NCBI GenBank assembly: GCA_965246885.1
Contig: OZ251992.1
Location: 1,280,001 to 1,344,000 of the forward strand
Direction: 5' to 3'
Length of the DNA: 64,000 bases
Source: Abditibacterium sp.
Lineage (GTDB): Bacteria; Armatimonadota; Abditibacteriia; Abditibacteriales; Abditibacteriaceae
In this document: piece by piece, positions 7,696-47,839 of the stretch
Position numbering within the stretch: position 1 is the first letter of the stretch
Layout of the letters: each line of letters begins with the position of its first letter
Position numbers and translations under genes: made by a program
The notes under the pieces: generated by a model
Database searches by the model: none
What the model was told of the DNA's origin: nothing
What the model saw: only the letters and a program-made list of their open reading frames with translations

Positions 7696-7712
7696 TTTAA
7701 CCTGAACTTAAA
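7696..7712 (+). promoter_or_regulatory. Putative Pho-box-like tandem repeat upstream of the response regulator
   Basis: TTTAAC-CTGAA-CTTAAA, 11-bp spacing. Confidence 0.4.
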
Positions 7713-7768
7713 GAAAAGGGGCGCGGTGGCTTCTACACTACGGCTCTCGTTTGCGCGGCTATTCACCC

Positions 7769-9441: not shown

Positions 9442-9465
9442 GGGGAGGGCGCGGAGTTTGGTATT

Positions 9466-9771: not shown

Positions 9772-9776
9772 GCCCG

Positions 9777-11009: not shown

Positions 11010-11060
11010 GCCTTTCAGTTTGACCCCTGCCGCAAAGCGGCGCTCCAAAACGGCGTCCTC

Positions 11061-13007: not shown

Positions 13008-13235
13008 GGATGTTACCTCGCCGCGTGTGCTCCCGGTCGCAGGTTGACCCCGTCGGACGCACACAACTCGTCGTTGGTTCAAAGCACCGAACTGGCCAGC
13101 CGAAATGTCGTGTTCCCAACTTTTTGGCCCCCGGTCTTCTCTTCTCCGGTTTGCCACGACGTACGTGCCCCTTGATGTGAAAAGCGGCCACTTTCCGAAA
13201 TTTATTCTATCGCCGCCGTCTCTCATGTGAAGAGG

Positions 13236-13371
13236 GACGTCTGTCTTTGGGCGGCGCACGTCTGTCGGCGCGTGGCAGACGTCTGTCATCGGATGGCGCA
13301 CATCTGTCGGCGCATGACGCACGTCTGTCGGCGCGTGACGCACGTCTCTTTTTGGGCGACAGACCTCTATC
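13236..13371. repeat. 21-bp-period tandem array (ACGTCTGTC / GACAGACGT family), 7 units
   Basis: Cores at 13237, 13258, 13279, 13300, 13321, 13342, 13363. Confidence 0.85.
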
Positions 13372-27020: not shown

Positions 27021-27036
27021 CGCGTCCGATGAAGAG

Positions 27037-27103
27037 GATTGGAAGGAGGCGGTAGCCCCGCTCCCGTTATTGGCGGGAGCGGGGCTACCGCCTCCTTCCA
27101 ATC
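27037..27103. repeat. REP-like hairpin (GATTGGAAGG..CGGTAGCCCCGC family), copy 1
   Basis: 30-bp perfect arms; second copy at 28685-28747. Confidence 0.9.
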
Positions 27104-27137
27104 AATCGCCCCCAAATCGCGCAGCTTACCAAAAATC

Positions 27138-28634: not shown

Positions 28635-28684
28635 AGCGACGTTGCGCCACCAATAGGCAAGGAGTTTCCTGCTTCGAGGAAGCC

Positions 28685-28747
28685 GATTGGAAGGGTGCGG
28701 TAGCCCCGCCAATTTGGTCGAAGCGGGGCTACCGCACCCTTCCAATC
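28685..28747. repeat. REP-like hairpin (GATTGGAAGG family), copy 2
   Basis: 25-bp perfect arms with compensatory changes relative to copy 1. Confidence 0.9.
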
Positions 28748-28860
28748 AAATGCACATCTCGCCGGGACTGTGCGTGACGACTTTTCGCCCCACGCGAGGA
28801 GGCCAATCGCCGCATGGCCCGTCAGTTTCACATCCTTTCTTGGAGGGAGTAACACCAAGT

Positions 28861-28967
28861 CCGGTAGTGGGGTGTTCGTTTGGAGTGCGCCCGTGAGGGC
28901 GTGCCGTTTGCGGCTGTGCCCATTCACGCCCTCACGGGCGCACTCCAAACGAATGCCCTACGACCGG
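28861..28967. repeat. REP-like inverted repeat (TTGGAGTGCGCCCGTGAGGGCGTG)
   Basis: Perfect 29-bp arms at 28875-28903 and 28925-28953, with an imperfect outer extension. Confidence 0.85.
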
Positions 28968-28981
28968 ACAGTGAGTAACAA

Positions 28982-29239
28982 ATGAACAAACACCTCGGAA
29001 CAACACCCCTGCACGACGACGCTCCCGAAGATTGGGAGCGTATCCTTAAACGCGCCGCTATCGTGCAACACTTGCGCGCGTTGGATGCATCGGGCGCAAG
29101 CGCATCTCCCGGCGCGACGCCGCTTCGCAATCCAACGCTCGAAGACAGGGCGTGAATGCTCAAACGCGCCGCCATCGTTCAACGCACGCGCGCATTGGAA
29201 GAAGCGCTGGCCGCTTCCTCCACTCCCACCCCTGCTTGA
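28982..29239 (+). pseudogene. Possible small internally duplicated gene interrupted by an in-frame TGA
   Basis: EDWERILKRAAIVQHLRALD and EDRA*MLKRAAIVQRTRALE lie in the same frame. Confidence 0.35.
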
Positions 29240-29407
29240 CGCGCAAGAGGCCTTCGACCAATACAACGCGGCGGGCGGGGAAAGTTGGGTCAGGCGGGAC
29301 GTTTTCGAGGGTTTGTGACCAAAAGAAGCGAAGACCCTATGGCCAAATAGGAGCCGCGCCCCAAAGTCGCGGACGACGGCGACGGTTTAGTGCGCGCTCC
29401 TCTGTGA

Positions 29408-29544
29408 ACCCGGCGAATCCATTCACCCCCAGAGAAAGGTCTGCCCTGATTCCATCGGGCGCCCAGCCTTCGCGGACACAGAGGCAGTTCGTCGCGGCAA
29501 CGAAGGTTGACGCTTTTCTCTGACCGCGAATGGATTCGCCGGGG
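29408..29544. repeat. Long imperfect hairpin; REP doublet of the GCGAATnnATTC family
   Basis: CCCGGCGAATCCATTC pairs with GAATGGATTCGCCGGG; inner pairs CAGAGAAAG/CTTTTCTCTG and CAGCCTTCG/CGAAGGTTG. Confidence 0.7.
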
Positions 29545-29754
29545 TAGTGCAGGCTTGCAGCGCGCCCGTTGCTCTTGTGAATGTGACTGCCGTGCCATTT
29601 CGTGCGCCTTTTACGCTGTTTCGCGCGCCCTTTATGCCGTTCAGAAAGCCCGAAATGCACTTTAGAGAGGATTTTCCGCTTTTTAGCGTGCCCATCGGAG
29701 CATTTGTCGCGGCACTCGACCCTTTTATCGTCACTGATAGCCGCCGAGGGAGGA

Positions 29755-29990
29755 AAACAAAAGGCCGGGGTCAAAAACAATACGCCGGGGGCAAGAAACA
29801 AGAGGTCGTGGGAAAGAAAAAATACGCCGGGGGAGCAAAACAAAGGGCCGGGGACATGCTACAAGGCGCCGGGGACGTGCTAAACGGGGCCGGGGGAGCA
29901 AAACAAGGCGCCGGGGACGTGCTAAACGGAGCCGGGGACGTGCTAAACGAGGCCGGGGGAGCAAAACAAAGGGCCGGGGACATACTGCAA
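29755..29990. repeat. 21-bp-period tandem array (GCCGGGG core), about 11 units
   Basis: Cores at 29764, 29784, 29805, 29826, 29847, 29868, 29889, 29910, 29931, 29952, 29973. Confidence 0.85.
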
Positions 29991-30096
29991 ACCTCCGATG
30001 CTCGTTTGAGAATGGGAAAAGTCGTGCGAAAAAGCGGCTCGCCCGTCCGCAAAGCGCGCGCGGAACGAAAACTGCGAACGCGCCACACTACTATCA

Positions 30097-31359
30097 ATGC
30101 CAGATTTAGCCCTACGCACATCGCTGGACAAAGAGTTTCGCCCGACGCGCGGCGAATTTCTGCAAACCCTCCTCATCGAACTCTCGCCCGGTCGCGGACT
30201 GCGGACATTGCCGCTCAACTTGGGCATCCTGCTCGACAACTCCGGCTCGATGGAAGGCGAAAAGTTGGAGCGCGCCAAACGCGCTTGCACGCTCATTCTC
30301 GACCAACTGTCGCCCGAAGACCGCGCGACAGTCGCCGTCTTTTCGAGTGGCGCGCGCGTTGTGGTTCCGTCCGCGCCTTTCGCCGAAGGCGCGGGGTTTC
30401 GCGCGCGGCAAAGCGTGATGGACGTGCGCGTCGAAGGCGCGACCGAACTGCTCGCGGGGCTGAACACCATTTATAAGGAAATCGAGCCGCACAAAACGCC
30501 CGCCAACACGACGTTTGTCATCGTGCTTTCGGACGGTCAGCCGACGGACTCGCAAGGCTTCGTTGACCGCGACCTGCCGAAGTTCTTGGAGCGCGCCAAG
30601 TCCGAGTTCGAGCGCGGCGGCGTGTCGTTATCCACGATTGGACTTGGGAAGGCCGAGGATTACGACGCGACTTTCTTGCGCGATTTGGCCGACAAAGGAA
30701 GCGGGAAGTTCCTCATGGCGCAGACGCCCGAAGAATTGGCGGGCGTCTTTCAGGATGAGTTCGGGCGCATCTCCTCGACCGTGCTGAGCGACGTGACCAT
30801 TGAAGTCTCCCGCTTGAACGGGCGCGCGCGGCGTTTGTGGCGCGTGGTGCCCGACAAGAAAATCTTCGACCCGCCGCAAGTCGTCAGCAACTCTTTCCGC
30901 GTTCCCGTCGGCAGCGTGCAGAACGACCAGCCGCAAGCGTATTTGCTCGACGTTGTAACGAGCGCGCCCGATGGCGCGAAGTCGCGCGACTTGCTGTGCC
31001 AAATCGCGGCGTGGAGCAGCGCCAATCCCGCACAAAAGGCCGAAGTCAACGTCTTAACAGGCTACTCGGACAACGAAGTCGAACTCGCGCAGCGCAACGG
31101 CGAAGTCGTGAGGCTGCTCGAAGAAGCCAACGATTTCAAACTGCAAGTGGACTTGGAAGCCGCCGTCAAAGCGGGCGACAAGCGCAAAATGACGCAAGTC
31201 TTGGAGCGCAAAAAGAAAATGACGCAGCGTTTGGGGAAAAGCGCGGCGACCAAAGTCTTGGAGGAAATGGAAGAAACGCTCGGCAAAGGCGGCGACATTT
31301 CCGCCGAAACCCTCGCCGTGTCGTCGGCGGAAACAAAGAAGACTAAACGCCTTGCGTAA
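30097..31359 (+). CDS. von Willebrand factor A domain protein
   Basis: MIDAS motif DNSGSM, GAT, LSDG, TIGLG. Confidence 0.9.
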   Translation: MPDLALRTSLDKEFRPTRGEFLQTLLIELSPGRGLRTLPLNLGILLDNSGSMEGEKLERAKRACTLILDQLSPEDRATVAVFSSGARVVVPSAPFAEGAGFRARQSVMDVRVEGATELLAGLNTIYKEIEPHKTPANTTFVIVLSDGQPTDSQGFVDRDLPKFLERAKSEFERGGVSLSTIGLGKAEDYDATFLRDLADKGSGKFLMAQTPEELAGVFQDEFGRISSTVLSDVTIEVSRLNGRARRLWRVVPDKKIFDPPQVVSNSFRVPVGSVQNDQPQAYLLDVVTSAPDGAKSRDLLCQIAAWSSANPAQKAEVNVLTGYSDNEVELAQRNGEVVRLLEEANDFKLQVDLEAAVKAGDKRKMTQVLERKKKMTQRLGKSAATKVLEEMEETLGKGGDISAETLAVSSAETKKTKRLA

Positions 31360-31367
31360 ACAATTAA

Positions 31368-31452
31368 AGCCACAGATGGACACAGAAGACACGGATGTTT
31401 TGGAGGATTTATCCTTTGCTTGTATCCGTGTTTCCCGTGTCCATCTGTGGCT
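31368..31452. repeat. REP-like inverted repeat (GCCACAGATGGACAC family)
   Basis: AGCCACAGATGGACAC pairs with GTGTCCATCTGTGGCT. Confidence 0.8.
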
Positions 31453-31461
31453 AATTCAAAC

Positions 31462-32097
31462 ATGATCACCTGTCCAGCTTGCAACCATTCCAACGTGGAT
31501 GGCACCCAGTTCTGCGAAATGTGCGGCGAGGAATTGCCGCACAACAGCGCGACGGCGTCCGCTCCGACGGGCAACGAAGTCAAATGCCCGAACTGCGGCC
31601 ATCTCAATCCGCCCGAAAACCTCGCGTGCGAAGCGTGCGGCACGAACTTAAAACCCGCCGCCGCGCCGGTTTCCATTCCCGCGCCGCTTGTGCCGCCCGT
31701 TTTGGAAACAACTCCCTTCGATGCCGCGCCCGTCGCGGCGACGGACACGTCCATCGCGGGCGATTTGAAGCCGGGATTGGTGAAATTGGTCGTCGAGCAG
31801 GGCCAAAGCGTGGGCGCACAGTTCATCCTCAACGACAACGCAATCGAAGTCGGGCGCGAAGACGAGGACGAAGCGATTTACCCCGACATAGACCTGTCCG
31901 ACCAAGACGCGGGCTACGTTCATCGCCGCCACGCCACGCTCAAATTCGAGAACGGACACTTGCTTGTCACGCACTTGGGCGGCGCCAACAAGACGCGCGT
32001 CAACAACAAACCCGTCGCCGACAACACCCCGACGCCCGTCAAACTCGGCGATAAAGTCGCGTTTGGGAAAGTCGTGCTGCGCTTGATGCCGGTGTAA
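31462..32097 (+). CDS. Double zinc-ribbon and FHA domain protein
   Basis: CPAC..CEMC, CPNC..CEAC; VGR...VHRRHA..NKTRVN. Confidence 0.9.
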   Translation: MITCPACNHSNVDGTQFCEMCGEELPHNSATASAPTGNEVKCPNCGHLNPPENLACEACGTNLKPAAAPVSIPAPLVPPVLETTPFDAAPVAATDTSIAGDLKPGLVKLVVEQGQSVGAQFILNDNAIEVGREDEDEAIYPDIDLSDQDAGYVHRRHATLKFENGHLLVTHLGGANKTRVNNKPVADNTPTPVKLGDKVAFGKVVLRLMPV

Positions 32098-32102
32098 TTC
32101 GT

Positions 32103-32339
32103 ATGAATCACGACGAAGCCGAAGCGTTGTGGGGCGAGGAGCGCGTCGCGTGGTTCCGCCTCGCGCCGATGGAACGCATGGCGTTCTCCGCGAAGTTGTG
32201 GCGCTTCTACGCCAAAGCAGGAGGTTCACTTGATTCCCGACCCGATTTTCAAAGTTCTAACGACGATGGGCAAGAGCGGCGTGCGCGCGCTACTCATGGG
32301 CGGTCAAGCCTGCGTTTTCTACGGCGGGGCGGAATTTAG
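32103..32339 (+). CDS. Small hypothetical protein, partner of the downstream nucleotidyltransferase
   Basis: 78-aa ORF (WFRLAPMER...W) overlapping the next gene. Confidence 0.55.
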   Translation: MNHDEAEALWGEERVAWFRLAPMERMAFSAKLWRFYAKAGGSLDSRPDFQSSNDDGQERRARATHGRSSLRFLRRGGI

Positions 32340-32988
32340 CATTGATTCCGACTTCGCCCTCGCCGCCGACGAGGACAATCTGGGGCGCTTGCAAAGCGCG
32401 CTCGATGAACTGAACGCCAAACCCATCGCCGTCCCTCCGTTCCGGCGCGAGTTCTTGGAGCGCGGTCACGCCGTCCACTTCCGTTGTCAGCACCCCGACT
32501 GCGAAGGGTTGCGCGTGGATGTGATGGCGAAAATGCGCGGCGTGGACGACTTCGAGGCGTTATGGGAACGCCGCACGACGGCATTTGACCCCGACACGGA
32601 CATCGAATTCGAGCTAATGGCGCTCCCCGACTTGGTGCGCGCCAAGAAAACCCAGCGCGACAAGGATTGGCCCATGCTCCGCGCTCTCGTGGACGCCCAT
32701 TTTGTGCAGTTCGGCGACGAACCGACGCCCGCCCGCGTCCAATTTTGGCTGGAGGAAGCCCGAACTCCCGCCATTTTACGCATTGTTGCGGCGAAATTCC
32801 CGGAAATCACGGTCACGCGCGAAGCCGCAATTTTAGCCAAAGGCGAAGCCAATGACGCCGCCATCGAAGCGGCTTTAAAGGCGGAAGAGGAACGCGAACG
32901 CGCCGCCGACCGAATCTATTGGGCGCCGTTGCGAGCGGAGTTGGAAGAGTTGCGGCGGATGCGGGCGAATGGCCGGAACACGCCTTGA
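32230..32988 (+). CDS. Pol-beta-superfamily nucleotidyltransferase (TA-type)
   Basis: LMGGQAC..YG...SIDSD (GG plus DxD), RVDVM, LVRAKKTQRDKD. Confidence 0.75.
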   Translation: MIPDPIFKVLTTMGKSGVRALLMGGQACVFYGGAEFSIDSDFALAADEDNLGRLQSALDELNAKPIAVPPFRREFLERGHAVHFRCQHPDCEGLRVDVMAKMRGVDDFEALWERRTTAFDPDTDIEFELMALPDLVRAKKTQRDKDWPMLRALVDAHFVQFGDEPTPARVQFWLEEARTPAILRIVAAKFPEITVTREAAILAKGEANDAAIEAALKAEEERERAADRIYWAPLRAELEELRRMRANGRNTP

Positions 32989-33164: not shown

Positions 33165-34604
33165 TCAAGGCACCGCCGTCAGCCACCCATGTTTCGCCTG
33201 CAACTTCGCGGCGACGGCGGGCGAAACCATGTGGATGAACGCCAGATAGCCGCGCGCGTAGGGGAGGGCGGGTTTGCCCATTTGCTCGGAAACCGCGCCC
33301 TCGCCGCGCGTTTCGATGGCGTGCAGGACGGCGCGGAAGCGGCGCAGGTCGCGGCGCGACAGGCGCGGCTCGCCGTCGCCGTTGACGACCAAACCCGTCA
33401 CGCTTTGCCGCGCGCCGCGCCGCAGGAGCGCGATTTTGTCGGGGTTGAGCGCGAACTGCTCGGCTTCCAACACGGTCAACACGCCGCGTTGCAAGGAGAT
33501 GGGCCGCGCGTCGGGCGCGGGCGACGAAAACACGAGGTCGTCGGCGTAGCGCGAATAGGTGAATCCGTAGTGCGCCGCCATGCCCTGAAGCCGCGCGTCC
33601 AAGCGGCGGCAGAGCAAATTCGTCAGCGCGGGCGAAGTCGGGGCGCCTTGCGGCACGAAGCGTTCGCCAAGAGCGACGTAGGATTTCTGGCCGTCGAAAG
33701 TGGCCGCAACGCGCGGCGATTCGGTGCAAATCAGCGCGAGCAGGGTGGCGATACCGCGATTGTAACCGAGCGAGCCGAACACCCCGGCAACGCGCGCGAA
33801 GGTGATGGACGGGAAGAAATCCTTCAAGTCCACGCGCAAGAGGGCGCTCGGCCCGCCCGATTCGGTGTGCGCGTGTCGGGCCGCGTTGTCGGCGATGTTG
33901 AGAGCGGGCAAGAACGCGGCGGCGGCAGCGTGAACCGGAACGGGGCGTAGCACGGCCTCCAGAATCTTGCTTTGCGCCGCTTTCAGATACGGGCGGGGCG
34001 CGGAAATGGCGCGACTGCCGCCGCTTCGTTTGGGAATGGAAAAGTGCGAGTAGTGATCGGTCGGCGCGGCTTCGCGGTGGTAGCACAACCACGCGAGTTG
34101 GCCGACGTTCATCTCCAGAAAGCCCGCCAAATCGCGCGGCTCGTTCCACACGGGCAGGCCAAAGCGCGCCAGTTTTTCGGCGTCGGACGGGATGGAAAAG
34201 TCGAGGCGGCGCGATACGCCGCGTCCCAAATGCGGTAACTGCTCGGAGCGCCACCGGGCGTCGTCGGCCAAGCGCAACTCGCGTTCGCGGGCGCGGCGTT
34301 CCTTTCGTTCGGCGCGCGCGGCTTTGACGCGCTCGATGCGGGCGCGGCGCACTTCGGCCAGCTTTGCTTCGATGTCTCCGGCGCTTGAAAGTTCGCGCTC
34401 CACGTCGCTCAGGCGGGCGCGCAAAGGGCGCGCATCCTCGGCAACGGCGCGCAGTTCGTCGTTGAGCGGCGCTAATTTGGCGCGTAGTTCCTCGGCAGTG
34501 GCGGGCGCGTCGCCGTTGGCGGGCGGCCAAAAACCAAGCCGTTCTATCTCGCGGCGCTCAAATTCGCGCTTCCCCAACTGCTTGATGTCGTCGCGCCAAC
34601 TCAT
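33165..34604 (-). CDS. Retron reverse transcriptase (Mx162-like, long N-terminal coiled-coil extension), 479 aa
   Basis: IPKRSGGSRAISAP, region X DNAARH, DLKDFFPSI, PQGAPTSP, YSRYADD, region Y QSVTGLVVN. ATG overlaps the SWIM stop (ATGA). Confidence 0.92.
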   Translation of the reverse strand: MSWRDDIKQLGKREFERREIERLGFWPPANGDAPATAEELRAKLAPLNDELRAVAEDARPLRARLSDVERELSSAGDIEAKLAEVRRARIERVKAARAERKERRARERELRLADDARWRSEQLPHLGRGVSRRLDFSIPSDAEKLARFGLPVWNEPRDLAGFLEMNVGQLAWLCYHREAAPTDHYSHFSIPKRSGGSRAISAPRPYLKAAQSKILEAVLRPVPVHAAAAAFLPALNIADNAARHAHTESGGPSALLRVDLKDFFPSITFARVAGVFGSLGYNRGIATLLALICTESPRVAATFDGQKSYVALGERFVPQGAPTSPALTNLLCRRLDARLQGMAAHYGFTYSRYADDLVFSSPAPDARPISLQRGVLTVLEAEQFALNPDKIALLRRGARQSVTGLVVNGDGEPRLSRRDLRRFRAVLHAIETRGEGAVSEQMGKPALPYARGYLAFIHMVSPAVAAKLQAKHGWLTAVP

Positions 34605-36313
34605 CTCGCGCTCTCCTTTTCGGCTTGCGCCAAGCCCGCGAGCAAATGCGCGCACGGGCCGCCGCGTCCCTTGTCGCGGCGAAACTCGCCGCAGGTGCAT
34701 TGCCAGAACCGCACGCGCCCGTCCAAGTCGCGCGCCCACAAAGGCCTGAAAACTCCGCCTTCAGTTGCAACGACCGCTTGGAAAAAGGCGACATCGGGCG
34801 CGTTGTATCTCTGAAAAAATTCGTCCTCATCAATCTCGTCTGTGGGAATCGCTATCAAGATGACCAGTTGTTTCTCGACCCAGCGCCGCGCCGATTTCGT
34901 TTTGGCATCCTCCTCAGATTCGGGCGCCGGGAACGCGAGCAGTTGCCGCCAGCGATAGGCGCCGATCTTGGCATCGAAGAGCGCGCGGCCTTCCCGACAC
35001 AACTTTTGCAGAGCCGCGCCCGCTTCCTCGCGTGGCCAACTCGCAAACGCTGCCAACGCCTCGACTGAAAGCACGCGCTTCCACTCCAACTCCTTCGCGG
35101 CGATTTGCAGGCTCGAATCAGAGATTTCCCGCCCCGCCGCAAGCGCATCAAAGCGGGCTGAGGCGCTCCAATCGTTCTGCGTCCAGCCGGACAGCCCCAA
35201 CTCGAAGCGGTGCCCCTCCAACTCCAAAGCCCAAAACGACGGCAAACCGTCGCCCAGTAGCCGCACTTCGACCGATTGCGCGTGCGGCAACAACTCCGAC
35301 AACACGGACAAGCGCCGCCGTCCCCAAATACGGACGGTGCGCGCCGCCCCTTCGTAGGAGATGTTCGGCTCGCGCACGGTTTCTCCCCAAGGTTCGATTT
35401 CAATCGTGGGCAACTCGCCCGGCGCGAGCGAAAACTTGAGCGAACGCGGCCCGCTCGTTTCGCGGCGCGCGGCCAGAAGTCGCAATATCTCGGCAACGGT
35501 CGTCGCGCTCAAGCGCAAAGTCGTCGTCGCCAACGCCGAGGCGCTCCCCACCTGCAAAAACCCGCGCACCCACGACGGCGGCAGGTCTATCTTCTTTTCG
35601 ACCCGCGTGCCCGCAGAGGTTTGCACGCTCACGCCGCCGCTTCCCACGCTCAGAAACGCACCCCGATAGTCGCGCACCCGCGCCAATTCGTCGGCCAGAC
35701 TCTGCGAAAAGTCCACGTTCGTCGTGCCGTACGCTACCTCGCCGAGCGCGTCGAGGTTCTCGGACGGCACGCGCACGCACGCATAGCTGGATTCGTCGAG
35801 CGAGAACACCTCGAACAGCACCGCGTCGGGATGCACCGACACGACCGGATCAAGCACGATCCACATCTGCCGGTCGTGCGTGTAGAGGAACTGCCAGAAT
35901 TTGTATTGCGCGTCGCGGTAGCTTTTCGCGTCACCGCGCGATAGTTTTTGCACCTCTTGCAGTAGCTCCTTCGCGCGCCCATCGAGCGTCGCCAAGCGCG
36001 TTTGGAGTTCTTCCGATTCGCTCTGCAACTGCGGCAAGCGCCCGCGCAGCGCCGCCAAGTAGGGCGCCAAGTCCTTGAGGTATTCGCCCTGCACCCACGC
36101 CTGATAGTCCGTGTGGTCGCGCCCGACGAAGCGCGCTTCTTGCGACACGACGCGGTGCAACGCGCCCATCACGCGGCCATAGGCGCGCGAGTGCAACACC
36201 AACGCTTCCAACCGCACGCCGGGCCGGGCGGCTTCTGTGGGCAAAGAGAAGTCAAGGCCGTCGCCGCGCGGCTGGGCCGACGAGGGAAAGGGGTAAGATT
36301 GGGTAATTTGCAT
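34601..36313 (-). CDS. SWIM zinc-finger protein (retron-associated type), 570 aa
   Basis: C-terminal CTCGEF...GPCAH; LDPVVSVHPD..FEVFSLDESSY, GTTNVDF, EKKIDLPPSWVRGFLQV, LSGWTQNDW. Confidence 0.85.
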   Translation of the reverse strand: MQITQSYPFPSSAQPRGDGLDFSLPTEAARPGVRLEALVLHSRAYGRVMGALHRVVSQEARFVGRDHTDYQAWVQGEYLKDLAPYLAALRGRLPQLQSESEELQTRLATLDGRAKELLQEVQKLSRGDAKSYRDAQYKFWQFLYTHDRQMWIVLDPVVSVHPDAVLFEVFSLDESSYACVRVPSENLDALGEVAYGTTNVDFSQSLADELARVRDYRGAFLSVGSGGVSVQTSAGTRVEKKIDLPPSWVRGFLQVGSASALATTTLRLSATTVAEILRLLAARRETSGPRSLKFSLAPGELPTIEIEPWGETVREPNISYEGAARTVRIWGRRRLSVLSELLPHAQSVEVRLLGDGLPSFWALELEGHRFELGLSGWTQNDWSASARFDALAAGREISDSSLQIAAKELEWKRVLSVEALAAFASWPREEAGAALQKLCREGRALFDAKIGAYRWRQLLAFPAPESEEDAKTKSARRWVEKQLVILIAIPTDEIDEDEFFQRYNAPDVAFFQAVVATEGGVFRPLWARDLDGRVRFWQCTCGEFRRDKGRGGPCAHLLAGLAQAEKESAR

Positions 36314-36340
36314 GATGGTCTTCCTGCCTTTGTGCTGGCG

Positions 36341-36410
36341 GGCGGGCAACCACATGGGTTGCCCCTACGGAGAGGGTGAGTGGTAGGGGCAACCGTATGG
36401 GTTGCCCGCC
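36341..36410. repeat. GTAG-type REP doublet (GTAGGGGCAACC...GGTTGCCC)
   Basis: Two inverted palindromic units, each with a GTAG end, inside the operon. Confidence 0.85.
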
Positions 36411-36424
36411 GTGCTGCGCTCTGG

Positions 36425-39400
36425 TTAAGGCGAAACCCGCAACCCCTCCACTTCCACGCCGCTCAACCGCAACCGCACGAGTTGCGCTAAGGCCCATTCG
36501 CGGTCGCGCCCCGCGCCGGTGCGCGCGGCGTCGAGCAGGGTGGCGACATCGGTCGTCTGCGCGTGACGGAGGCGGAGTTGCACGAGGTTTTTGGCGCGGC
36601 GCGAACTCCCGCGCGTGTTCAAGATGGAAGTGTCGAAGGCGGCTATGGGCGCCGTTGCGGGCGCGGTTTGGAGTTGCGCGGCCACAAAAGCGCGCACGCG
36701 GGGCGCGTCGTGTTGCGCGAGTTGTTCCAAGAGCGCGGGCGTCCAACGCGCGGGAAAACGCGCGAGCAAGTCGAGTCCGGCGTGTTGCGTTTCGCTTTTG
36801 GGCGAGTCGCACAGCGCCAACACGCGGGCGGGCCATTCGTCATTCTCGGCTTCAAAGAATGGGCGCGCGAGCGCGAGGCCTTCGGGCAAGCCGCTTTCCA
36901 TCAATCGCAGCCCCGCGCGCAGATTAAGCGGCGTTTGGCGCAAGCGGGCCAAAGCTGGGGCGCGGAACTCCTCATTCAAGGAAGTCGCGGCGGCGAATAG
37001 GAGCGGTTCGTCGCCCGCCATCGTGGGCAAGTGCGCGGCAAACCACGCTTCCAAGAGGGAGTCCAAACCGCCCTTGTTCGCTTCCATGAGCGGCAACACG
37101 GCATGCGCGGGCAATTCCGCGAACGCATTGTTTGCCCGCGCGCGTCCGATGCGCTCCAACCACGCGGCGCCTTGGGGGGCGTCGAGTTCGCTTAGAAACG
37201 CCCACAACGCGCCCGTGAGGGGCAAGGCCGTGAGGTTGTCGGCGAAGGTTTGGCTCGGCAGAGCCGCTAATTTGCGCCACGTCGCAACGGAAAGGTTGGG
37301 GGCCAGCGCCGCGAAAAAGTGTGCGCGGCCAAGCGGAGGGAGAAGTGCGGCGAAGTCGAAATCTTCGGCGCTCGCGGCGGCTTCGATGCGCGCGGCGAAC
37401 GCTTCGGCAAAGCGCGCTTCGCCGCCCAACTGCCAGAACTGCGCGCGCAACGCGGGCTGATTCCACAACCACTCCGCGACGGCGGGCGCCATCTTCATCG
37501 CCATCAAAGCGGGCGCGAGAGGTTCGAGCAACTCCTGCGCGGCGACGGTTCCCCACTCCGCGAGCGTCAATCCGTCGGGCCGCGCGCCAGTCAGCGCCGC
37601 GCAAAAGACGGCGCGGAGCGTCGGCAGGAGTTGCTTCGCCAGCGCGAATTGCGCGGCCCGCGCGCGCGCTTCGACAAGCGGCGTCGCCCACGCCACAACT
37701 TCCGGCTCGTCGGCTTCGGGCGCGTCGAGGGCGCGCAGAACCCATCCCTCGCTCGGCTCAATTTGCCTAAAGCGCGCGAACAAGAGGAGCAGTTCGCCGC
37801 GCACCGGAAGGAAGCGCGCCTCTTGCAACTGGCGCGCGAGCGGTTTCCAATCGGCGTTCGGGTTGGCCGACAAAGCCGCGCGCACGACGGCGAGCGCGAG
37901 TTGCGGCGCCGCGCTTGTGGCGAAGCGGAGCGCGTGTTCGGGTGTGGCGGCGGGAGTCTCGCCGCGCCGCGTCAGCCACTCCCACGCCCACGCCAGAATC
38001 GGGATGGGGAGGGCGTCGTCGCTCCACAACGCGCGCACCAAGTCGGGCCGCGCGGCGAAGACGGTGTCTTGGAGGCCCAAGCGAAAGGCGAGGGTGCGCG
38101 CGATATCGCCGCTTTGCGCGCGTTGCAGCGACCCCAAAACGAGCGGAGCGAGCAGGGCGCGGCGCTCCGGCGCGAGTTCGGTTTGTTCCGCTAAGAAGCG
38201 CAGCAACCGCTCGGCGCGGCGGGTGAGGTAAGCGACCGTCGCGCGCGTTGGCCCGCCGTTCGGCAGGCGTTTCGGGTCGCCGCGCCGCGCCGTCTCGGAG
38301 TCGAGGCGCCCAATCAGCACACCCAACAAGAGCGCCTCGCGCTCGGTGGCGAGGGGCGCGTCGGGCGGCAAGTCGCTCTCGGTTTTCTTCCAACGCGCGC
38401 GGGTTTGGAGTGGCCAAACCCGCGTTTCCAACGCTTTCCACGCGCGCTTGAAGTCGGGCCAAGTGGCGCCATCGAGCGGCGCACCGCGCAACTCGCGGCG
38501 CAACTTCTCGAAGTCGGCGCCCTCCGCGCCAAGCGCCATGTTCTGCGGCGGCAGGACGGCGTGCTTCGTCGGGTCAAATGGCAAACGCAGACTCAGGCGA
38601 AGCGATTTCGGGCGCGTCGAGGCGGGCTTAGGCAGCGACGAAAGTAGCAGCGTCGGCACCGTCTCGAAGTGATTGTCCGCGAAGAAGCGCGCCTTCGCGT
38701 CGTCGGACGCGAACGTCAGCACATACGCGCGGCCCACACCCGGATTCGCCGCCATATAAGGAAGCAACCGCGTCGGACTCCCCGTCTTGGTGCCCAAGTC
38801 GTTGATGAACACAACGGCGTCCTCTTGGGCAGTGAGCGGAGTATCTTGAGTGCGGAGCCGCGTTCCGAAGGGCGTGCGCGAGGTGGCGCGGACGGTGACT
38901 TGAGCGCGGTCAAACGAGTTGAACCAGTCATTCTGGATGGCGATGCCACTCCATTCGAGCGGGCGCCCCGCGCTTCGCAGCACGCGCGGTAGGTAGTCGC
39001 CCATCTCGCCCGTCAGTTGCGCGAAGCGGATTTTGGCTTCCCAGATGTTGGGCGCGGACGCGATACGTTCACGGAGCAGGGGCGCCAACTCGCGTTCGAG
39101 ACGCACGACTGCGGCGGCCAATCTGTCTTGAGTCGCGCCAGAGAAAATCAGCGCTTCACCTGTTTCGCTGACTTCCAACTTGTCCGGCGCAAACGCAAGC
39201 TCGACGCCGAGAGAAGTTCGCATTCCGCCCAGATTGCGGCTAAGCAGAAGCCCAGTAGAAACGGGGAAACCGACGTCATCCACCACTGCGAAGGATGAGC
39301 CGCCGCGTGTGACCTTCCATCTGTCGCCCTCGAATAGAACCTCGCCGCGTTGAGAGCCGCCCAAAGCCCCACCCCGAACGCGCGGCGGGACGCGGAAGAA

Positions 39401-40183
39401 GTCGAAAACGCGCGCGGCTTCGTGCCCGACGTGATTCGCTCTGAGTAACGAAGCGCCGATAGGGACTTCCACTTCCACGCCATCCCCCTGATTCGTCGGC
39501 ACTTCGCCGTCTTTGGTGACGGTGCCGATGCCCGCCATGTCGAGGGCGCATCGGAAGGTTTTGGCCCTCCCGCCTTGGAAGGTCGAGACGCGGAACTCGT
39601 CAGCGTAAGCGTAGGCGGCGCGCGCGCCGAAGTCGGAAGTGACGGCGGGCGAGAGGGCGTAGCGCGCGAGAACTTCGGCTTCGGTTGGGACGGCGCCATA
39701 CGAGCGGACGCGGAAGCGGGGGTCTTGGGCGGTCGGAAGCCAAACATCGAAGGGCGTGTCGCCGATGCCCGCCGCGTCGTGGAAAGCGCGCGCTTCGAGG
39801 GCGATTTCGCGGATGAGCGCGGCGATGGGGTTCGAGTAGCGCAGCGCGACGGGCAAAGCCGCGCGGTTGACGCCGATGACGGCGGGCGCACTTTGAATCG
39901 GCGCGGGCGAAGTGTTGGCGGGTGTCGCGGCGCGGGGCGCGTAGCGAAATGGGGGCGTCGCGGCCTTGACCGAAGCGTCGGGCGCGCGGTCGTAACCGGG
40001 CATCTGCCCACCCGAAAACATCGTTTGCACCACGCCGTTGACAAGGGGGTGCGGCACTTCGACGCCCGCTCCCAAGCGGCGCCGCACCTCCAGCGTTATC
40101 TCGTAGGCTGTGAACGAGGCGCCCGCCACGACTTGATCCAAAACGGTCTGGCGCGCTTCTAATTCGATTTGGGGGTTAGTCAT
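36425..40183 (-). CDS. 1252-aa protein: small N-terminal domain, degenerate RIIA-like GHKL region, C-terminal HEAT/ARM repeats
   Basis: YSNPIAALIREI...PRFRVRSYG...AYADEFRVST...GVEVEVPI; C-terminal helical repeats LRLMESGLP, LALCDSP, RDREWALAQL. Confidence 0.75.
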   Translation of the reverse strand: MTNPQIELEARQTVLDQVVAGASFTAYEITLEVRRRLGAGVEVPHPLVNGVVQTMFSGGQMPGYDRAPDASVKAATPPFRYAPRAATPANTSPAPIQSAPAVIGVNRAALPVALRYSNPIAALIREIALEARAFHDAAGIGDTPFDVWLPTAQDPRFRVRSYGAVPTEAEVLARYALSPAVTSDFGARAAYAYADEFRVSTFQGGRAKTFRCALDMAGIGTVTKDGEVPTNQGDGVEVEVPIGASLLRANHVGHEAARVFDFFRVPPRVRGGALGGSQRGEVLFEGDRWKVTRGGSSFAVVDDVGFPVSTGLLLSRNLGGMRTSLGVELAFAPDKLEVSETGEALIFSGATQDRLAAAVVRLERELAPLLRERIASAPNIWEAKIRFAQLTGEMGDYLPRVLRSAGRPLEWSGIAIQNDWFNSFDRAQVTVRATSRTPFGTRLRTQDTPLTAQEDAVVFINDLGTKTGSPTRLLPYMAANPGVGRAYVLTFASDDAKARFFADNHFETVPTLLLSSLPKPASTRPKSLRLSLRLPFDPTKHAVLPPQNMALGAEGADFEKLRRELRGAPLDGATWPDFKRAWKALETRVWPLQTRARWKKTESDLPPDAPLATEREALLLGVLIGRLDSETARRGDPKRLPNGGPTRATVAYLTRRAERLLRFLAEQTELAPERRALLAPLVLGSLQRAQSGDIARTLAFRLGLQDTVFAARPDLVRALWSDDALPIPILAWAWEWLTRRGETPAATPEHALRFATSAAPQLALAVVRAALSANPNADWKPLARQLQEARFLPVRGELLLLFARFRQIEPSEGWVLRALDAPEADEPEVVAWATPLVEARARAAQFALAKQLLPTLRAVFCAALTGARPDGLTLAEWGTVAAQELLEPLAPALMAMKMAPAVAEWLWNQPALRAQFWQLGGEARFAEAFAARIEAAASAEDFDFAALLPPLGRAHFFAALAPNLSVATWRKLAALPSQTFADNLTALPLTGALWAFLSELDAPQGAAWLERIGRARANNAFAELPAHAVLPLMEANKGGLDSLLEAWFAAHLPTMAGDEPLLFAAATSLNEEFRAPALARLRQTPLNLRAGLRLMESGLPEGLALARPFFEAENDEWPARVLALCDSPKSETQHAGLDLLARFPARWTPALLEQLAQHDAPRVRAFVAAQLQTAPATAPIAAFDTSILNTRGSSRRAKNLVQLRLRHAQTTDVATLLDAARTGAGRDREWALAQLVRLRLSGVEVEGLRVSP

Positions 40184-40191
40184 AATCTTTA

Positions 40192-40250
40192 TCGCGCAGA
40201 GGCGCAAAGGCGCGGATGTAAAAAACCTTGGCGTCTTCGCGCCTTTGAGA
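40192..40250. repeat. REP-like inverted repeat (CGCGCAGAGGCGCAAAGGCGC family)
   Basis: CAAAGGCGCG pairs with CGCGCCTTTG. Confidence 0.6.
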
Positions 40251-40267
40251 GAGGCTTCTCACGCGCC

Positions 40268-41563
40268 TCACTCAAACTCCAGCAAATACACGGGGTTAGC
40301 TTGGGCGGTGTCGAAGATGATGACTTCGTCGTTGATGAGCCAGCCGGACTTTCCGGCGCGCGCCCAGTAGGAGTCGTAACCGGCGGGCGGGTTCTTGCTG
40401 GTCGTGGTCTTTGGCTCGAAATCGCGGCCAACGGCGACCTCGTTGAGGAACATATAAATTTTGCGCGTGCCCTTGCCGCCCCAAAAGCCGTTGGCGTATT
40501 GCAGCGATTTGGTCGAGGCGGGCGCGAAGTAGAGGCCGTTGCCAAAGGCTTTTCCGGCGATGTGGGCGGTCGAGGGCGGCGTCATCATAAAGCCGGACTT
40601 GAGGATGGACAAGACATTGGCGCTGGAAGTGCCGTGCCACAAGCGGTGGATGTTGCCTTTGGCGCGTCCGCGCTCCTCGAAGTTGCGCTTCATGCCCGCG
40701 ATTTCGACGGTGTAGACGTTGGCGAGATTTAGGTGCTTGATGGTGACGTGTTCGGTTTTGGCGGAGGTCTCGAAGTGGTGCTTGATGGCGTTAAACTCCG
40801 CGTCGTCGCGGAGTAGTTCAAGCGCGGTATCGAAGAGTTGCGGGACAGGTTCCGGCTCCTTGCCTTCTTCTTTGGGCGCAGTAAGCGCGGTCGTGAGACT
40901 CGCTTCAAGCGAGTCGAGGATGCCCAATTGTTTCTGGATTTCGGCATCGTCGGGGAAAAGCGACTTGGGATCGGGGCGGGTGCGGCCAAAGTCGCGCGGC
41001 ACGATGGTGAGGAACTGATTGACGAAATCAAGGTAGTCCTTGTCGTCCCAGATGCCCGCGTCCACTTTGTCCTTGATCTTCGAGAGCAGCAAACGCCCGT
41101 CCAAGATGCCGCCCTGCGTGATTAGCCCCGACGCGGTGGAGAACAACCCCGTCGCCGCGTTGTATTTGATGGCCGAGTTCGCGGTGATGTTGTGGATGTT
41201 TTGCGCGCACAGGAACGAAATGAGCGCCTTGACTTCGAGCGATTGGGTGCGGATTTGTTCGAGGGCGATCTGCTCCAATCCGGCGTTTTTGGCGCCCGCT
41301 CCAGTGGGAATGTTGGCGTCGAGAACGGGTTGCGGCTTGTAGCCCTTGGCGGTCTTTTCGCGCAGCTTGGAGTTGAAAAGCCGCTCGCCGCCCGCTTGGG
41401 TGGTGTCGGACTGCGTTTGCAGTTCGCCGCCGGAGTTCTCGATGTAGCGACCGTAGCGGATGCGGACGGTGTCGTCCTCGTGGAGGTCGAGATAGTAGAA
41501 CTTGTTGTTGTTGGTGCCTACCGACACGAAAATGAGCCGTGCGCTTTGGGTAACTTTCGACAT
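40268..41563 (-). CDS. Poly(ADP-ribose) polymerase-like protein: WGR, PARP regulatory and PARP catalytic domains
   Basis: NNNKFY...RYGR...KTAKGY (WGR); NQFLTIVPRDFG (regulatory); LWHGT, FGNGLYFA, KSLQY, NDEVIIF (H-Y-E triad); GGAG RBS. Confidence 0.9.
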   Translation of the reverse strand: MSKVTQSARLIFVSVGTNNNKFYYLDLHEDDTVRIRYGRYIENSGGELQTQSDTTQAGGERLFNSKLREKTAKGYKPQPVLDANIPTGAGAKNAGLEQIALEQIRTQSLEVKALISFLCAQNIHNITANSAIKYNAATGLFSTASGLITQGGILDGRLLLSKIKDKVDAGIWDDKDYLDFVNQFLTIVPRDFGRTRPDPKSLFPDDAEIQKQLGILDSLEASLTTALTAPKEEGKEPEPVPQLFDTALELLRDDAEFNAIKHHFETSAKTEHVTIKHLNLANVYTVEIAGMKRNFEERGRAKGNIHRLWHGTSSANVLSILKSGFMMTPPSTAHIAGKAFGNGLYFAPASTKSLQYANGFWGGKGTRKIYMFLNEVAVGRDFEPKTTTSKNPPAGYDSYWARAGKSGWLINDEVIIFDTAQANPVYLLEFE

Positions 41564-41639
41564 GGTGATTCTCCCGACGCGGCAAAGGCGTTGGATAAAG
41601 GGTTCTCGCGGAAGAGAATTGGGTTGTCAAAACAAAGAA

Positions 41640-41910
41640 ACAAAGTGGGGCGGCACGCAGCTTTACCAACCGAGACGGGCGCCAGTCGCTGTAACCCGGT
41701 TTGCGGGGCGCGCGCCATATGTCGCACCGGTTGTGTCGTAGCCCCGTAGGGAAGCTACCGTGCGACACAACCGGTGCGACATATGGCGCGCGCCCCGCAA
41801 ACCGGGTGAAAACACACCGGCGACCCGTGCTGCAAGCGCAGCGAAAAGGGAAGTCATTGCTCGTCCGGCGAAACACCGGACACATTGCCAACGCCCCGCT
41901 CCACCATGTT
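41640..41910 (-). ncRNA. Candidate retron msr-msd ncRNA
   Basis: Perfect 45-bp hairpin (41694-41738 / 41763-41807), two small 5' hairpins (41829-41842, 41863-41881), terminal complementary segments (about 41642-41655 / 41886-41902); lies between a promoter and the RT operon. Confidence 0.7.
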
Positions 41911-41917
41911 GACGGAG

Positions 41918-41946
41918 AATTTATCGCACTTCTCAGTCCAGCGCAA
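41918..41946 (-). promoter_or_regulatory. Putative sigma70 promoter for the ncRNA-PARP-RT operon
   Basis: Minus strand TTGCGC-N17-TAAATT. Confidence 0.5.
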
Positions 41947-41991
41947 GGGGGAAAAGCGAGTTTTTTTTGAATCGGATGAAAGCGCTCGGAA

Positions 41992-44821: not shown

Positions 44822-44848
44822 CCGGAACCCATCGGAAACCTAACCATC

Positions 44849-45676
44849 ATGTATACCGTTCCCAGACGCCGCGACGTGCGGCTCGCTTTCACGCTCATAG
44901 AATTGCTCGTAGTTATCGCTATCATCGCAATTCTCGCGGCCATTTTGTTCCCCGCCTTCGCCCGCGCCCGCGAAAACGCCCGCAAGGCTTCTTGTATGTC
45001 CAACATGAAGCAGTTGGGCTTGGGCTTCATTCAATACACACAGGACTACGACGAGAAGCTTCCCATCCAAGACGACGGCCCCAACTGCTGTGGCGGCCAA
45101 CAACGGCGCGGGCGCGGTTGGGCCGGACGCATGTATCCCTACGTCAAAAGCCGCCAGCTGTTCCGTTGCCCCAGCGACAGTTCGGGGGCGCAGTATCAAA
45201 CCTCCTACTCCATGAACAACAACCTCAGCAACTGGAGCGGTTATGGCGGCATCGAAGGCAAAATCTCGGCGATGGCCGCGCCCGCCAAGACCGTCATGGC
45301 TTTTGAGATCAGCAACGGTATGCCTTACCACGACATCACCGACCCCAACGAGCAAGTGTCTCCTTCCTCGAACGGCACCAAACTCGTCAATAACGCTTTT
45401 GACGGTCTTGACAGCGACGGCACTCCAGCCACCCACGCGACGGGTTATATGGGCGGGCGCGGCAACGCCAACTCGCAGTTCCCCACGCCCAATGGTCGTC
45501 ACCTCGACGGCTCGAACTTCCTCTTGGCCGATGGGCATGTGAAATGGCTGCGCGGCGATGCCGTTTCGAGCGGCGATGTGGCTACCAACGAAACCGACGC
45601 CCAGATCAGCAATCAAGCCGAAGGCACCGCCTACTCTGGTACAGGCGGACATAGCGTGACTTTCTCCACGAAATAA
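44849..45676 (+). CDS. DUF1559 / prepilin-type N-terminal cleavage-methylation protein with H-X9-DG motif
   Basis: [58 protein letters not shown]. Confidence 0.92.
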
Positions 45677-45730
45677 GTGGCCCCAACCCCGGCGCGCGAA
45701 CCGGGAGGTTCGCGCGCCGTTTTGCGTCCC

Positions 45731-47839
45731 ATGAAATCTCTCTCTCTTCTTCTTGTAGCCCTTTCTGCTGCTCCCGCCTCCGCCCAACCCGCGCTTCATT
45801 GGCGCCCCGTGAACGAGCCGGGTGTTGGCGGAGCTATCGTTGCGATGGCGGTTTCGCCCTTTGACTCCAAGCGCGTTCTGCTCAGTGGCGATATGCTTGG
45901 CGCGACCGTTTCCACCGATGGCGGCGATTCGTGGGGGCCGACCTTTGGCTTCAAGGGCTGGGAGATGGGCGACTTCACGTTTTCGCCCGCCAACGCCAAG
46001 GAAGTTTGGGTGGGCAGTATGAGCGGGCCGTACAAGTCGCCCGATGGCGGCGTGCATTGGGCCGAAAAGCGCGGCGGCTTCCCCGCATATGACCACTTCT
46101 CGGCGCCCGTCCAAAAGGTGCTCTACGATCCGCGCACGCCCGGTCGCTTGCTCGCGTTTGGCGGTAATCACCGCGGGTTCTCCTCGCTCGCCGATACCGC
46201 CAAGTGGGGCGCCGTGTGGGAGTCCAAGGACGACGGCGATACTTGGGCGCTCCTGACCACGCTGGGCGCGGGCGCCAAAGGCTCCGGCTGGAACATCTTC
46301 CAAGCCGCTTACGCCGCCGATGGCAAAACCCTCTTCGTCGCGTGCAAAGAGCACGGTGTGTGGAAGTCGGGCGACGGCGGCAAAACGTGGACGGAAGCGA
46401 ACGCAGGTCTGCCCAACCAGAACGTTGGCTTCTTGGCGGTTCACCCCCGAAACGCCGCCGTGTTGTGGTGCGTCTTGGACGCCGAAGGCGTCTACAAGTC
46501 CGTTGACGGCGGCGCGACATGGAAGCCCTCGAACACCGGCATGGACGCGGGCGGCGGCTACCAGTCGCTTGTTGTCGCGCCCTCCAACCCCGACATCCTT
46601 TTCGCGGGCGCTTACGGCAAGCAGAAAGTGTGGAAGTCCGTTGACGGCGGCGCGCACTGGGCTGTTGTCCAAGACGGCGCCAACACCCCGCTTTCCGTCA
46701 CGCCCTTCGCCCCGCAACCGTCGTGGCTGGCCGTTGACCCGCGCAATGCCAACACTATTTGGTCTATGAACTGGGTGTCGCCCTTCCGTTCGCGCGACGG
46801 CGGCAAAACGTGGCACAACACCGGCGACGCCGAAGTCGCGGGCGGCAAATGGCGCGGGCGCGGCTTTTCGGGCTACGTTTCGACCGATGTCGAGTGGAAC
46901 CCTTACAACCCCAAACAAGCGTTCTTGACCGCGATGGACGACGGCAAGTTTCTTCAGTCGAGCGATGATTTGAACAGTTGGCAATGGGGCGGCGCGGGCC
47001 TCAAACGCTTTGGCGGCGCGTCCGATGTCGCGTTTGGCGCCGATGGCAAAACCATCTTCGGCGCGGTCGGGCAGTTTGGCGCCACGTGGCTCGATGTCGG
47101 CATCGCCCGCTCCGTTGATGGCGGCGCCAATTGGGATTACCTGCCCAAACCTGCGGGCGTGGACGGTGGCGCGGTCACGTCGCGCGTTGTCGTAGACCCC
47201 GCCAACACTCGCCGCGTATGGACGGTATGGGGCGACAGGGTCTACTACACGGCTGATGCGGGCGCGAACTGGCGCGAAATCACTGTCAACGGCGCCGATG
47301 GCAAGCCGGACGCCCTGCTTGACCTTGCGCAGAACCCGCGCGACGCGAACGACTTGTGGCTCGCCGGACGCGGCGGCGTGTATCGCGCCAAGGACGGCGC
47401 CACCTTTTTCCCCGTCGCGGGCGGCCCGACCAACTGGCAATGGGGCACGACGGCCCTCACGGTTGACCCCACAAACGCCGAGCGCATCTACGCTTGCAAC
47501 TGGAACGCCCTCGACGGCAAGGGCGCGTGGAAGTGGGAAGCGGGCGCGTGGACGAAACTGGCAGGCGACTACTTCGGCGCCGACATCCGCTTGATCCGCA
47601 AACTCGCCGTTTGCCCCAACAACCCGCAACTGCTGGCAATGTGCACCAACGACGATCCTTGGCAGGACGTATCGGGCGCGAGCGGCGTGTACCTGTCGCG
47701 CGATGGCGGCGCACATTGGGCCGCGCAAAACGACGGCTTGCCGATGCTGCGCGCCAAAACCCTCGCTTTCTCACCCGACGGCAAAACCCTCGTCGTCGGC
47801 CTCAACGGGCGCGGCTTCTATCGGGCGGACGTGCCTTAA
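45731..47839 (+). CDS. Secreted BNR/Asp-box beta-propeller protein (GH74/sialidase-like)
   Basis: Signal peptide; many SxDGGxxW repeats. Confidence 0.85.

Follow-up and report, generated by a model that had tools for sequence, protein, structure and literature searches.

The question raised by this locus is whether a PARP gene lying between the non-coding RNA (ncRNA) and the protein genes of a retron works together with that retron or has only been inserted into it. The locus is found in a 64,000-nt stretch of an Abditibacterium sp. genome (Armatimonadota; GenBank assembly GCA_965246885.1, contig OZ251992.1, positions 1,280,001 to 1,344,000), called the window below, and coordinates are positions in this window unless another locus is named. 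The retron-PARP unit occupies positions 41946-33165 of the minus strand, with the 5'-to-3' order promoter-like site, ncRNA, PARP, a HEAT/ARM scaffold protein, a SWIM protein and the retron reverse transcriptase (RT). The explanation that we favor, and to which we give about an even chance of being correct, is that the PARP is functionally coupled to a type XIII retron and that the unit was remodeled around it, as judged from comparative sequence data.

A preliminary description of the window had read here a structured leader and four co-directional genes separated by 84 bp, 111 bp and an ATGA overlap, and this layout stands, with all the parts placed on the minus strand. The PARP gene (431 aa, 40268..41563) is followed by that of the scaffold (36425..40183), the open reading frame (ORF) of which opens at a TTG at 40207 and has its first ATG at 40183, giving a protein of 1252 aa and the 84-bp gap. 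The SWIM gene (34601..36355) opens at an ATG at 36355 as a 584-aa ORF, and an internal ATG at 36313 gives a product of 570 aa and the 111-bp gap after the scaffold, and the RT gene (479 aa, 33165..34604) starts with an ATG at 34604 that overlaps the SWIM TGA at 34603-34601. The claim that the unit is led by a promoter is the weak point of this description. The candidate (41918..41946, minus strand) is a weak sigma-70-like site with a -35 TTGCGC at 41946-41941, a 17-nt spacer and a -10 TAAATT at 41923-41918, and orthologous loci have sites at the same position (TTGCGC/TTGCAC-17-TAAATT in L002 and L003, TTGACA-17-TAAAAT in L005 and L006), but it matches the consensus at 7 of 12 positions and was not called in the consensus promoter scan of the window. 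The promoter/terminator scan found no terminator-like site between the ncRNA and the PARP gene, and its 14 terminator-like sites were no excess over the 15.1 of shuffled sequences. The ncRNA-PARP gap also contains a short hairpin motif, TTCTC-N6-GAGAA (41618-41603, minus strand), kept in L002-L004 as TTCTCAACCGCGAGAAC.

The class of the retron was assigned with PADLOC models and Pfam. The RT matched RT_XIII with an E-value of 1.1e-139, all its top matches being retron RT models, as well as Pfam RVT_1 (9.9e-20), and the motifs announced for it as NAxxH, YADD and VTG are present in the translation as NAARH, YADD and VTG. The SWIM protein matched SWIM_XIII (1.9e-150) and Pfam SWIM (2.7e-4) and contains the CxCx12CxH motif, and the scaffold gave a short match to HEAT-ARM_XIII (9e-7). 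Retron type XIII, as presented in the main text and Table 1 of Mestre et al. (2020) for Mxa1/Mx162, Mxa2/Mx65, Sau1/Sa163 and Nex2/Ne144, shares this kind of RT, a SWIM protein of the cluster 114_1 type with CxCx12CxH and a HEAT/ARM scaffold, and likewise has a long-hairpin ncRNA upstream of the operon and an inheritance that looks vertical. Thus, having a retron-clade RT with its motifs, an adjacent ncRNA with an msd hairpin between a1/a2 repeats, the SWIM protein and the scaffold, the locus is by its sequence a type XIII retron (Mx162 family), in agreement with the preliminary assignment. A first difference from the type as described is an additional gene, for a WGR-PARP, which follows the ncRNA and precedes the scaffold gene; here it is the PARP that carries the WGR domain. 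Neither Pfam nor PADLOC detected on the scaffold the WGR-like domain ascribed to the type (cluster 216_1), and since it is also absent from the 14 PARP-less scaffolds of the phylum, a WGR on the scaffold is not universal for type XIII. The view that the WGR partner of the type had here acquired an enzyme does not hold in this simple form, as Pfam WGR was found in none of those 14 scaffolds and the relatives of the PARP in the tree are foreign and in part phage-borne.

A second difference concerns the SWIM protein. In the PARP-less loci it has around 660 aa and ends in a BRCT domain (Pfam BRCT 2.5e-7 on L012), and a tblastn search with this tail detected it in 18/18 PARP-less loci (L011-L022, L029, L030, L045, L046, L049 and L050) versus 0/7 PARP-type loci. 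The passages of Mestre et al. (2020) on hand do not mention a BRCT tail on this protein. The tail of the 18 PARP-less proteins resembles that of NAD+-dependent ligases.

The ncRNA (msr-msd, 41641..41905, minus strand, with approximate ends) was delimited by its fold, its a1/a2-like arms and its conserved flanks, and it is structured, as anticipated for a non-coding leader. It folds with -212 kcal/mol (z = -10.3), in such a way that none of 100 shuffled sequences folded as well, and it includes a perfect 45-bp inverted repeat. The a1-like arm lies around 41900-41892 and the a2-like arm around 41652-41644; their 9-nt core is 89% complementary, being imperfect in the window and clearer in L005, and covaries among the orthologues. 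The same leader is located upstream of the PARP in the five orthologous loci L002-L006, with nearly invariant flanks and an almost unrelated hairpin sequence. The msd hairpin (41695..41806, minus strand) has exactly 112 nt in the six orthologues, although its arms are just 22-60% identical. When the six hairpins were aligned, 95.3% of the cells were paired, versus 58% in shuffles, and 40 of the 46 pairs had changed on both sides, a compensatory pattern that was not approached in any of 500 shuffles or in six slid registers. By these measures of conservation the leader is a structured retron ncRNA. Rfam returned no matching family for it, with only chance microRNA-type hairpin matches below the gathering scores.

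The leader was compared with ncRNAs from 11 type XIII loci of this phylum that lack a PARP. These loci contain a hairpin of 85-87 nt placed 28-527 nt upstream of the scaffold gene, 14 hairpins in total, three loci having two tandem copies. The flanks are homologous between the window and the PARP-less ncRNAs and consist of a GCGGCGTTTCGCCGC-type stem-loop, CACCGG...TTTC, the hairpin and then TACAGTGAC.GGCGCCCGTC. This homology, together with the position upstream of the scaffold gene, supports that the ncRNA heads the operon in both forms, with the PARP gene coming next, ahead of the scaffold gene, in the PARP-type form. The hairpin of the PARP-type is about 26 nt longer, which corresponds to about 13 bp more of stem. 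The possibility that the ncRNA had been relocated from the SWIM-RT gap to the start of the operon was ruled out because in PARP-less loci, too, the homologous ncRNA precedes the scaffold gene; the hairpins present in the SWIM-RT gaps of L011, L014, L022 and L030 have other sequences and lengths than the ncRNA.

The tandem copies are located at 2627-2712 and 2934-3019 in L014, 3604-3689 and 4115-4200 in L017, and 2522-2606 and 2870-2954 in L022, and within each locus their hairpin sequences differ and span the same 85-86 nt. Many long perfect hairpins with stems of 23-61 bp are also found between genes in the Abditibacteria loci L011, L013 and L014; such scattered hairpins look like repetitive extragenic palindromes or miniature inverted-repeat transposable elements, and could pass for msd hairpins.

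The PARP was described beforehand as a protein with WGR, regulatory and catalytic domains, and this architecture was recovered, clearly for the WGR at residues 8-78 and the ADP-ribosyltransferase (ART) catalytic domain at 255-431 and less clearly for the helical regulatory domain at around 110-221. Pfam detected WGR (2.3e-8, 34.5 bits for a cut-off of 22) and the PARP catalytic domain (7.4e-25, 88 bits), and PARP_reg fell slightly below its 26.8-bit cut-off (2.1e-5, 25.1 bits). The alignment with human PARP2 covers residues 15-381, from the WGR into the catalytic domain (3.6e-20), and an AlphaFold model of the protein (pLDDT 85.8), with helices at 96-227, best matches the WGR-to-catalytic chains of PARP2 and PARP1 bound to DNA breaks (3e-24, TM 0.55-0.67). 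The WGR motif itself reads YGR in the clade of the retron PARPs. Longer or fused forms of the PARP were not found, which is weak evidence, and a predicted complex between residues 1-560 of the scaffold and the PARP had a score of 0.00 and is uninformative on binding.

The catalytic residues of the PARP are intact: across 34 aligned homologues, H310, G311, Y345 and E413 do not vary. This result bears on the idea that the protein could be a mere DNA-binding subunit acting through its WGR and catalytically silent. Other phyla do carry a WGR-like domain in the type XIII scaffold without an enzyme, according to Table 1 of Mestre et al. (2020), and the first 104 residues of the PARP weakly match the PADLOC model WGR_XIII (2.9e-4). 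Against it, not only H310, Y345 and E413 but also the motifs surrounding them are kept in the 34 sequences, and the catalytic domain is highly conserved among the orthologues, so that a silent PARP seems very improbable to us.

To know how the PARP and the retron are associated, two samples were analyzed. A scan for close PARPs, with one genome per species and an alignment of 13 closer sequences, gave nine loci; the six from Abditibacteria all had the arrangement PARP-scaffold-SWIM-RT, and three distant ones (35-40% identity), among them a locus on a contig of 3.4 kb, had the PARP alone. The second sample comprised 401 genomes of the phylum, with matches to RT_XIII in 123 (around 60 of them strong) and to PF00644 in 35; a PARP within about 7 kb of the RT was present solely in the genus of the window, a genus of soil bacteria, in six genomes. 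A seventh genome of the genus, G179, has a PARP truncated by the end of the contig, making a total of 7 of the 13 genomes. In three of the PARP-type genomes there is, in addition, a type XIII retron without a PARP, and in two further genomes of the genus this PARP-less kind is the only one.

The RT phylogeny, which had been suggested as a check, placed the seven PARP-linked RTs in one clade (100/100) with a long stem of 0.54. This clade is joined (97/97) by retrons without a PARP that belong to other genera within the family, and the second retron copies found within the genus grouped with other families. The SWIM tree agrees, and the simplest reading of both trees is that the vertically inherited retron of the family was remodeled once. 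The order PARP-scaffold-SWIM-RT was kept in the seven loci, every RT of the clade having a PARP upstream. The DNA similarity of L005 and L006, the two most distant orthologues, to the window starts in the ncRNA (41880) and stops at the end of the RT (33186-33237), supporting that the inherited block is exactly ncRNA through RT, PARP included. The five parts are thus inherited as one unit, as had been suspected. The co-conservation of PARP and RT holds for 7/7 loci of the clade and goes back to one gain in one genus. For this reason, the kept synteny does not count as independent replication.

The scaffold comprises a small helical/winged N-terminal domain (1-85), an RIIA/Hsp90-like region (~87-540) and HEAT/ARM repeats (~555-1252). 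The label "RIIA-like" given to it at first proved appropriate: residues 87-411 matched the PHROG families of RIIA (phrog_612, 1.1e-21; phrog_30832, 5.7e-11) and RIIB (6.8e-10), and tblastn of the scaffold reached phage rIIA loci at 2e-24. A model of residues 1-620 (pLDDT 83, from 20 sequences) best matched the N-terminal plus middle domains of TRAP1/Hsp90 (5e-12), with a TM of only 0.33 over several domains; a GHKL-like fold is predicted, and by eye no Asn is apparent where GHKL motif I usually has one. A hidden Markov model (HMM) built from the 14 PARP-less scaffolds aligned collinearly with residues 555-1251 (1e-58), its positions 74-388 having no counterpart in the scaffold; this stretch corresponds to LVIVD/beta-propeller matches in 8 of the 14. 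None of the PARP-less scaffolds had an RIIA match. From this collinearity, the missing stretch and the lack of RIIA in PARP-less proteins, the scaffold is a new N-terminal module (residues 1 to ~550) joined to a type XIII scaffold devoid of its propeller. Word-based searches gave 18 relatives of the scaffold: 16 of them (1260-1354 aa, 38-57% identity) align with all 620 residues of the query and two with part of it.

In metagenomes, relatives with the RIIA-like module were found on four contigs only, all of low GC and with 24-25% identity over residues 79-537. In three of these contigs the match falls on a protein of ~780 aa, and in two a protein of 340-360 aa comes next; these neighbors are read as putative phage rIIA/rIIB pairs. 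With respect to phage RIIA (T4 rII family), matched by residues 87-540 of the scaffold in PHROG RIIA/RIIB with 24-25% identity over ~450 residues, the module here is bacterial, fused to the HEAT/ARM scaffold of a retron and devoid of an rIIB partner.

PARP-type loci therefore differ from the 18 PARP-less loci of the phylum in five respects: the PARP gene, the RIIA/Hsp90-like N-terminal module of the scaffold, the loss of the beta-propeller, the SWIM protein without a BRCT tail and the hairpin of 112 instead of 85-87 nt. Joint changes of this kind are expected if a complex of proteins with the multicopy single-stranded DNA (msDNA) of the retron had been rebuilt around the PARP, and it is this coordination that makes us favor a functional coupling.

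Several observations weigh against this explanation, and a first group of them fits better a PARP that is a passenger, that is, an independent repair or stress enzyme paired with a PARG, which would have entered an otherwise normal retron a single time, behind the ncRNA and ahead of the scaffold gene, and been kept by inertia. The link with the retron has a single origin, restricted to one genus. In 16 genomes from other families with a strong RT_XIII and a PARP, both lie on different contigs or 0.6-3.8 Mb apart, and the WGR-PARPs of eight other loci examined stand alone among ordinary, non-retron genes (SecA, PilT-like ATPases, photolyase). A DUF2263-type PARG is encoded 1.07 Mb from the retron-PARP, which fits an ordinary PARP/PARG pair equally well as a role in the retron; PARG was present in the six genomes with a Pfam-found PARP, yet also in 8 of the 21 without it, one of these eight being G179, with its contig-cut PARP. 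At the PARP-scaffold junction of L005 there is an unrelated ORF for a secreted thioredoxin-like protein (WCGWC, 11388-11945) together with a 55-bp near-perfect hairpin (11991-12126), so this junction tolerates insertions; that of L006 has a 36-bp hairpin (11410-11493). On the other hand, the PARP lies inside the unit, and the DNA that L005 and L006 share with the window is just the ncRNA-to-RT block containing it. It is also the best conserved protein of the unit, with 72-83% identity among orthologues compared to 67-77% for SWIM, 64-76% for RT and 37-57% for the scaffold, and the clade that gained it is also the one in which the four other changes of the retron took place. Moreover, no second PARP was found in the genome, and this sole PARP falls outside the resident PARP lineages of the phylum. 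Having all this in mind, we consider the passenger explanation rather doubtful and hold to the coupling of PARP and retron.

A second group of points concerns the role of a coupled unit. According to Mestre et al. (2020) and to the tree obtained here, type XIII retrons look vertically inherited; the literature searched gave no experimental anti-phage data for the type; and the unit is in neither a defense island nor a mobile element, its neighbors (oxidoreductase, GntR, PurT, LpxD and a cluster of FHA, VWA, PP2C and kinase genes) being housekeeping or signaling genes. The vertical inheritance and the neighborhood would agree with a domesticated unit through which the cell senses stress or damage to its DNA, with msDNA as a built-in ligand and PARP/PARG as a reversible signal. 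In this same direction, the site is stable in four of the six orthologous loci, the genome has, besides the PARG, two genes with Macro domains elsewhere, and WGR, BRCT and PARP, the domains of the type, belong to the vocabulary of the DNA damage response. Mestre et al. (2020), in the passages concerned, suggest themselves that type XIII may be domesticated. Nevertheless, the retrons characterized so far act in phage defense, according to the papers covered, and both acquired modules have phage relatives (the PARP in 16 phage records and eight viral contigs, and RIIA), which points to a host-virus conflict. On these sequence-based grounds, defense is likelier than housekeeping as the role of the retron-PARP unit, and a sensor with no part in phage defense we regard as unlikely.

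The relatives of the PARP were examined in a FastTree phylogeny of 61 PARPs (midpoint root, support values not considered), in which the retron PARPs are placed beside P0025 and then P0027 and L035, and the stand-alone PARPs of the phylum elsewhere. L035 is a 221-kb IMG/VR contig on which the PARP, 50% identical, is encoded near an ATP-dependent ligase and a homing endonuclease. Of the 16 phage records, seven have a full-length WGR-PARP (30-35% identity). Among the eight viral PARP loci, rII genes are nearby in one, L037, with rIIB and rIIA located 2.4-4 kb downstream of the PARP, and because of this pairing a phage source for both the PARP and the RIIA-like module is possible. On this 181-kb viral contig, positions 6390-14466 contain, on one strand, the WGR-PARP, two ORFs, rIIB and rIIA.

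Regarding how the unit might work, a type XIII retron would have gained a whole DNA-break-sensing PARP in the ancestor of one Abditibacteria genus, its partners and template RNA being remodeled meanwhile. The RT would copy the msd of the leader RNA into msDNA, with a hairpin of ~50 bp and fixed length, and this msDNA could form a standing complex with the RT, the SWIM protein and the HEAT/ARM scaffold. In PARP1-3, DNA binding by the WGR leads to the release of the helical domain and to activation. The PARP, which we infer to contact msDNA or a protein of the complex, may sense the state of msDNA through its WGR, acting on the helical regulatory domain as in those enzymes, in such a way that it would be turned on when phage proteins, or some other DNA insult, alter, cut or displace the msDNA. 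Once active, it would ADP-ribosylate targets, perhaps itself, the scaffold, other proteins or DNA ends, with consumption of NAD+, and the outcome might be a growth stop or a damage signal. We grant somewhat less than an even chance to the tentative proposal that a PARP1-like enzyme is gated by the msDNA of the retron as its DNA ligand, the cell-made hairpin of fixed length keeping the WGR-PARP poised and its disturbance firing ADP-ribosylation.

Some of these elements have precedents. Herpetosiphon HaPARP, C. difficile CdPARP and human PARP2/PARP1 have the same WGR-helical-ART build and H-Y-E triad (PMC8120803, PMC5966428), and the activity of the Herpetosiphon enzyme requires DNA (PMC8120803). 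In the portions of these two papers that were covered, bacterial PARPs are stand-alone genes with no assigned physiological role and neither "retron" nor "reverse transcriptase" is used, whereas here the PARP is embedded in a retron operon and has a YGR motif; a DUF2263-type PARG, as with bacterial PARPs, is also in this genome. ADP-ribosylation is likewise an anti-phage weapon in DarTG (PMC11825919, consulted in part), the difference being that DarT is a toxin-antitoxin ART acting on DNA, without a WGR/helical-domain sensor, RT or ncRNA. The logic proposed here would be analogous to that of Retron-Eco1 (Ec86) and other retron-effector complexes, in which RT and msDNA hold or gate a toxic effector. 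The effector of Retron-Eco1 is directed to NAD+. Unlike it, the unit described here has a candidate effector of PARP/ARTD fold with its own DNA sensor and the multi-protein build of type XIII.

In the literature searched, subscription journals and unread supplements aside, no retron with a PARP is described, in line with the initial impression that none was known. The word PARP is absent from the main text of Mestre et al. (2020), the supplements of which could list a PARP cluster. The main text of a 2026 retron survey based on SPIRE contains no PARP, WGR or ADP-ribos term and reports remodeling of type XIII just as SWIM_2/DUF6849 in Bacillota (PMC13712802). No function for type XIII retrons was found in the papers that could be searched. 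Two long-standing unknowns meet in the retron-PARP operon, which is a first genomic clue to the function of either part, and the loss of BRCT, the gain of a WGR-PARP and the ~13 bp longer hairpin point to the recognition of DNA ends as the core logic of type XIII. A proven defense role would add an effector family beyond PADLOC 2.0, in which no model matched the catalytic domain of the PARP at an E-value of 0.01. Mx162, of type XIII, was the first retron found. If msDNA does gate the PARP, bacterial PARPs would have a first physiological role, the 40-year-old Mx162-type retrons would gain a readable output, and a prokaryotic PARP-based sensing of nucleic acids would have been built from phage-type parts (PARP and RIIA-like).

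The genes flanking the unit are a Gfo/Idh/MocA gene on one side and a 252-aa ORF, FHA and VWA genes on the other. They recur in part beside the four closer orthologues, on both sides in L002-L004 (in L002 without the 252-aa ORF), the placement of FHA and VWA being kept in these three; in L008, a contig that ends inside the PARP, only the downstream side is visible, and it reaches only FHA. None of the flanking genes recurs beside L005 or L006. Downstream of the retron, positions 25689-32097 (plus strand) contain a cluster of Ser/Thr kinase-FHA, PP2C phosphatase, VWA and zinc-ribbon-FHA genes. The 252-aa ORF (32230-32988, plus strand), convergent with the RT gene, has no Pfam match; it is 62-68% identical in L003, L004 and L008 and absent from L002, L005 and L006. 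Finally, a 962-aa ORF at 44840-47728 (minus strand) matches no Pfam family at 1e-4, and its C-terminal 99 residues weakly match a stretch of L012.

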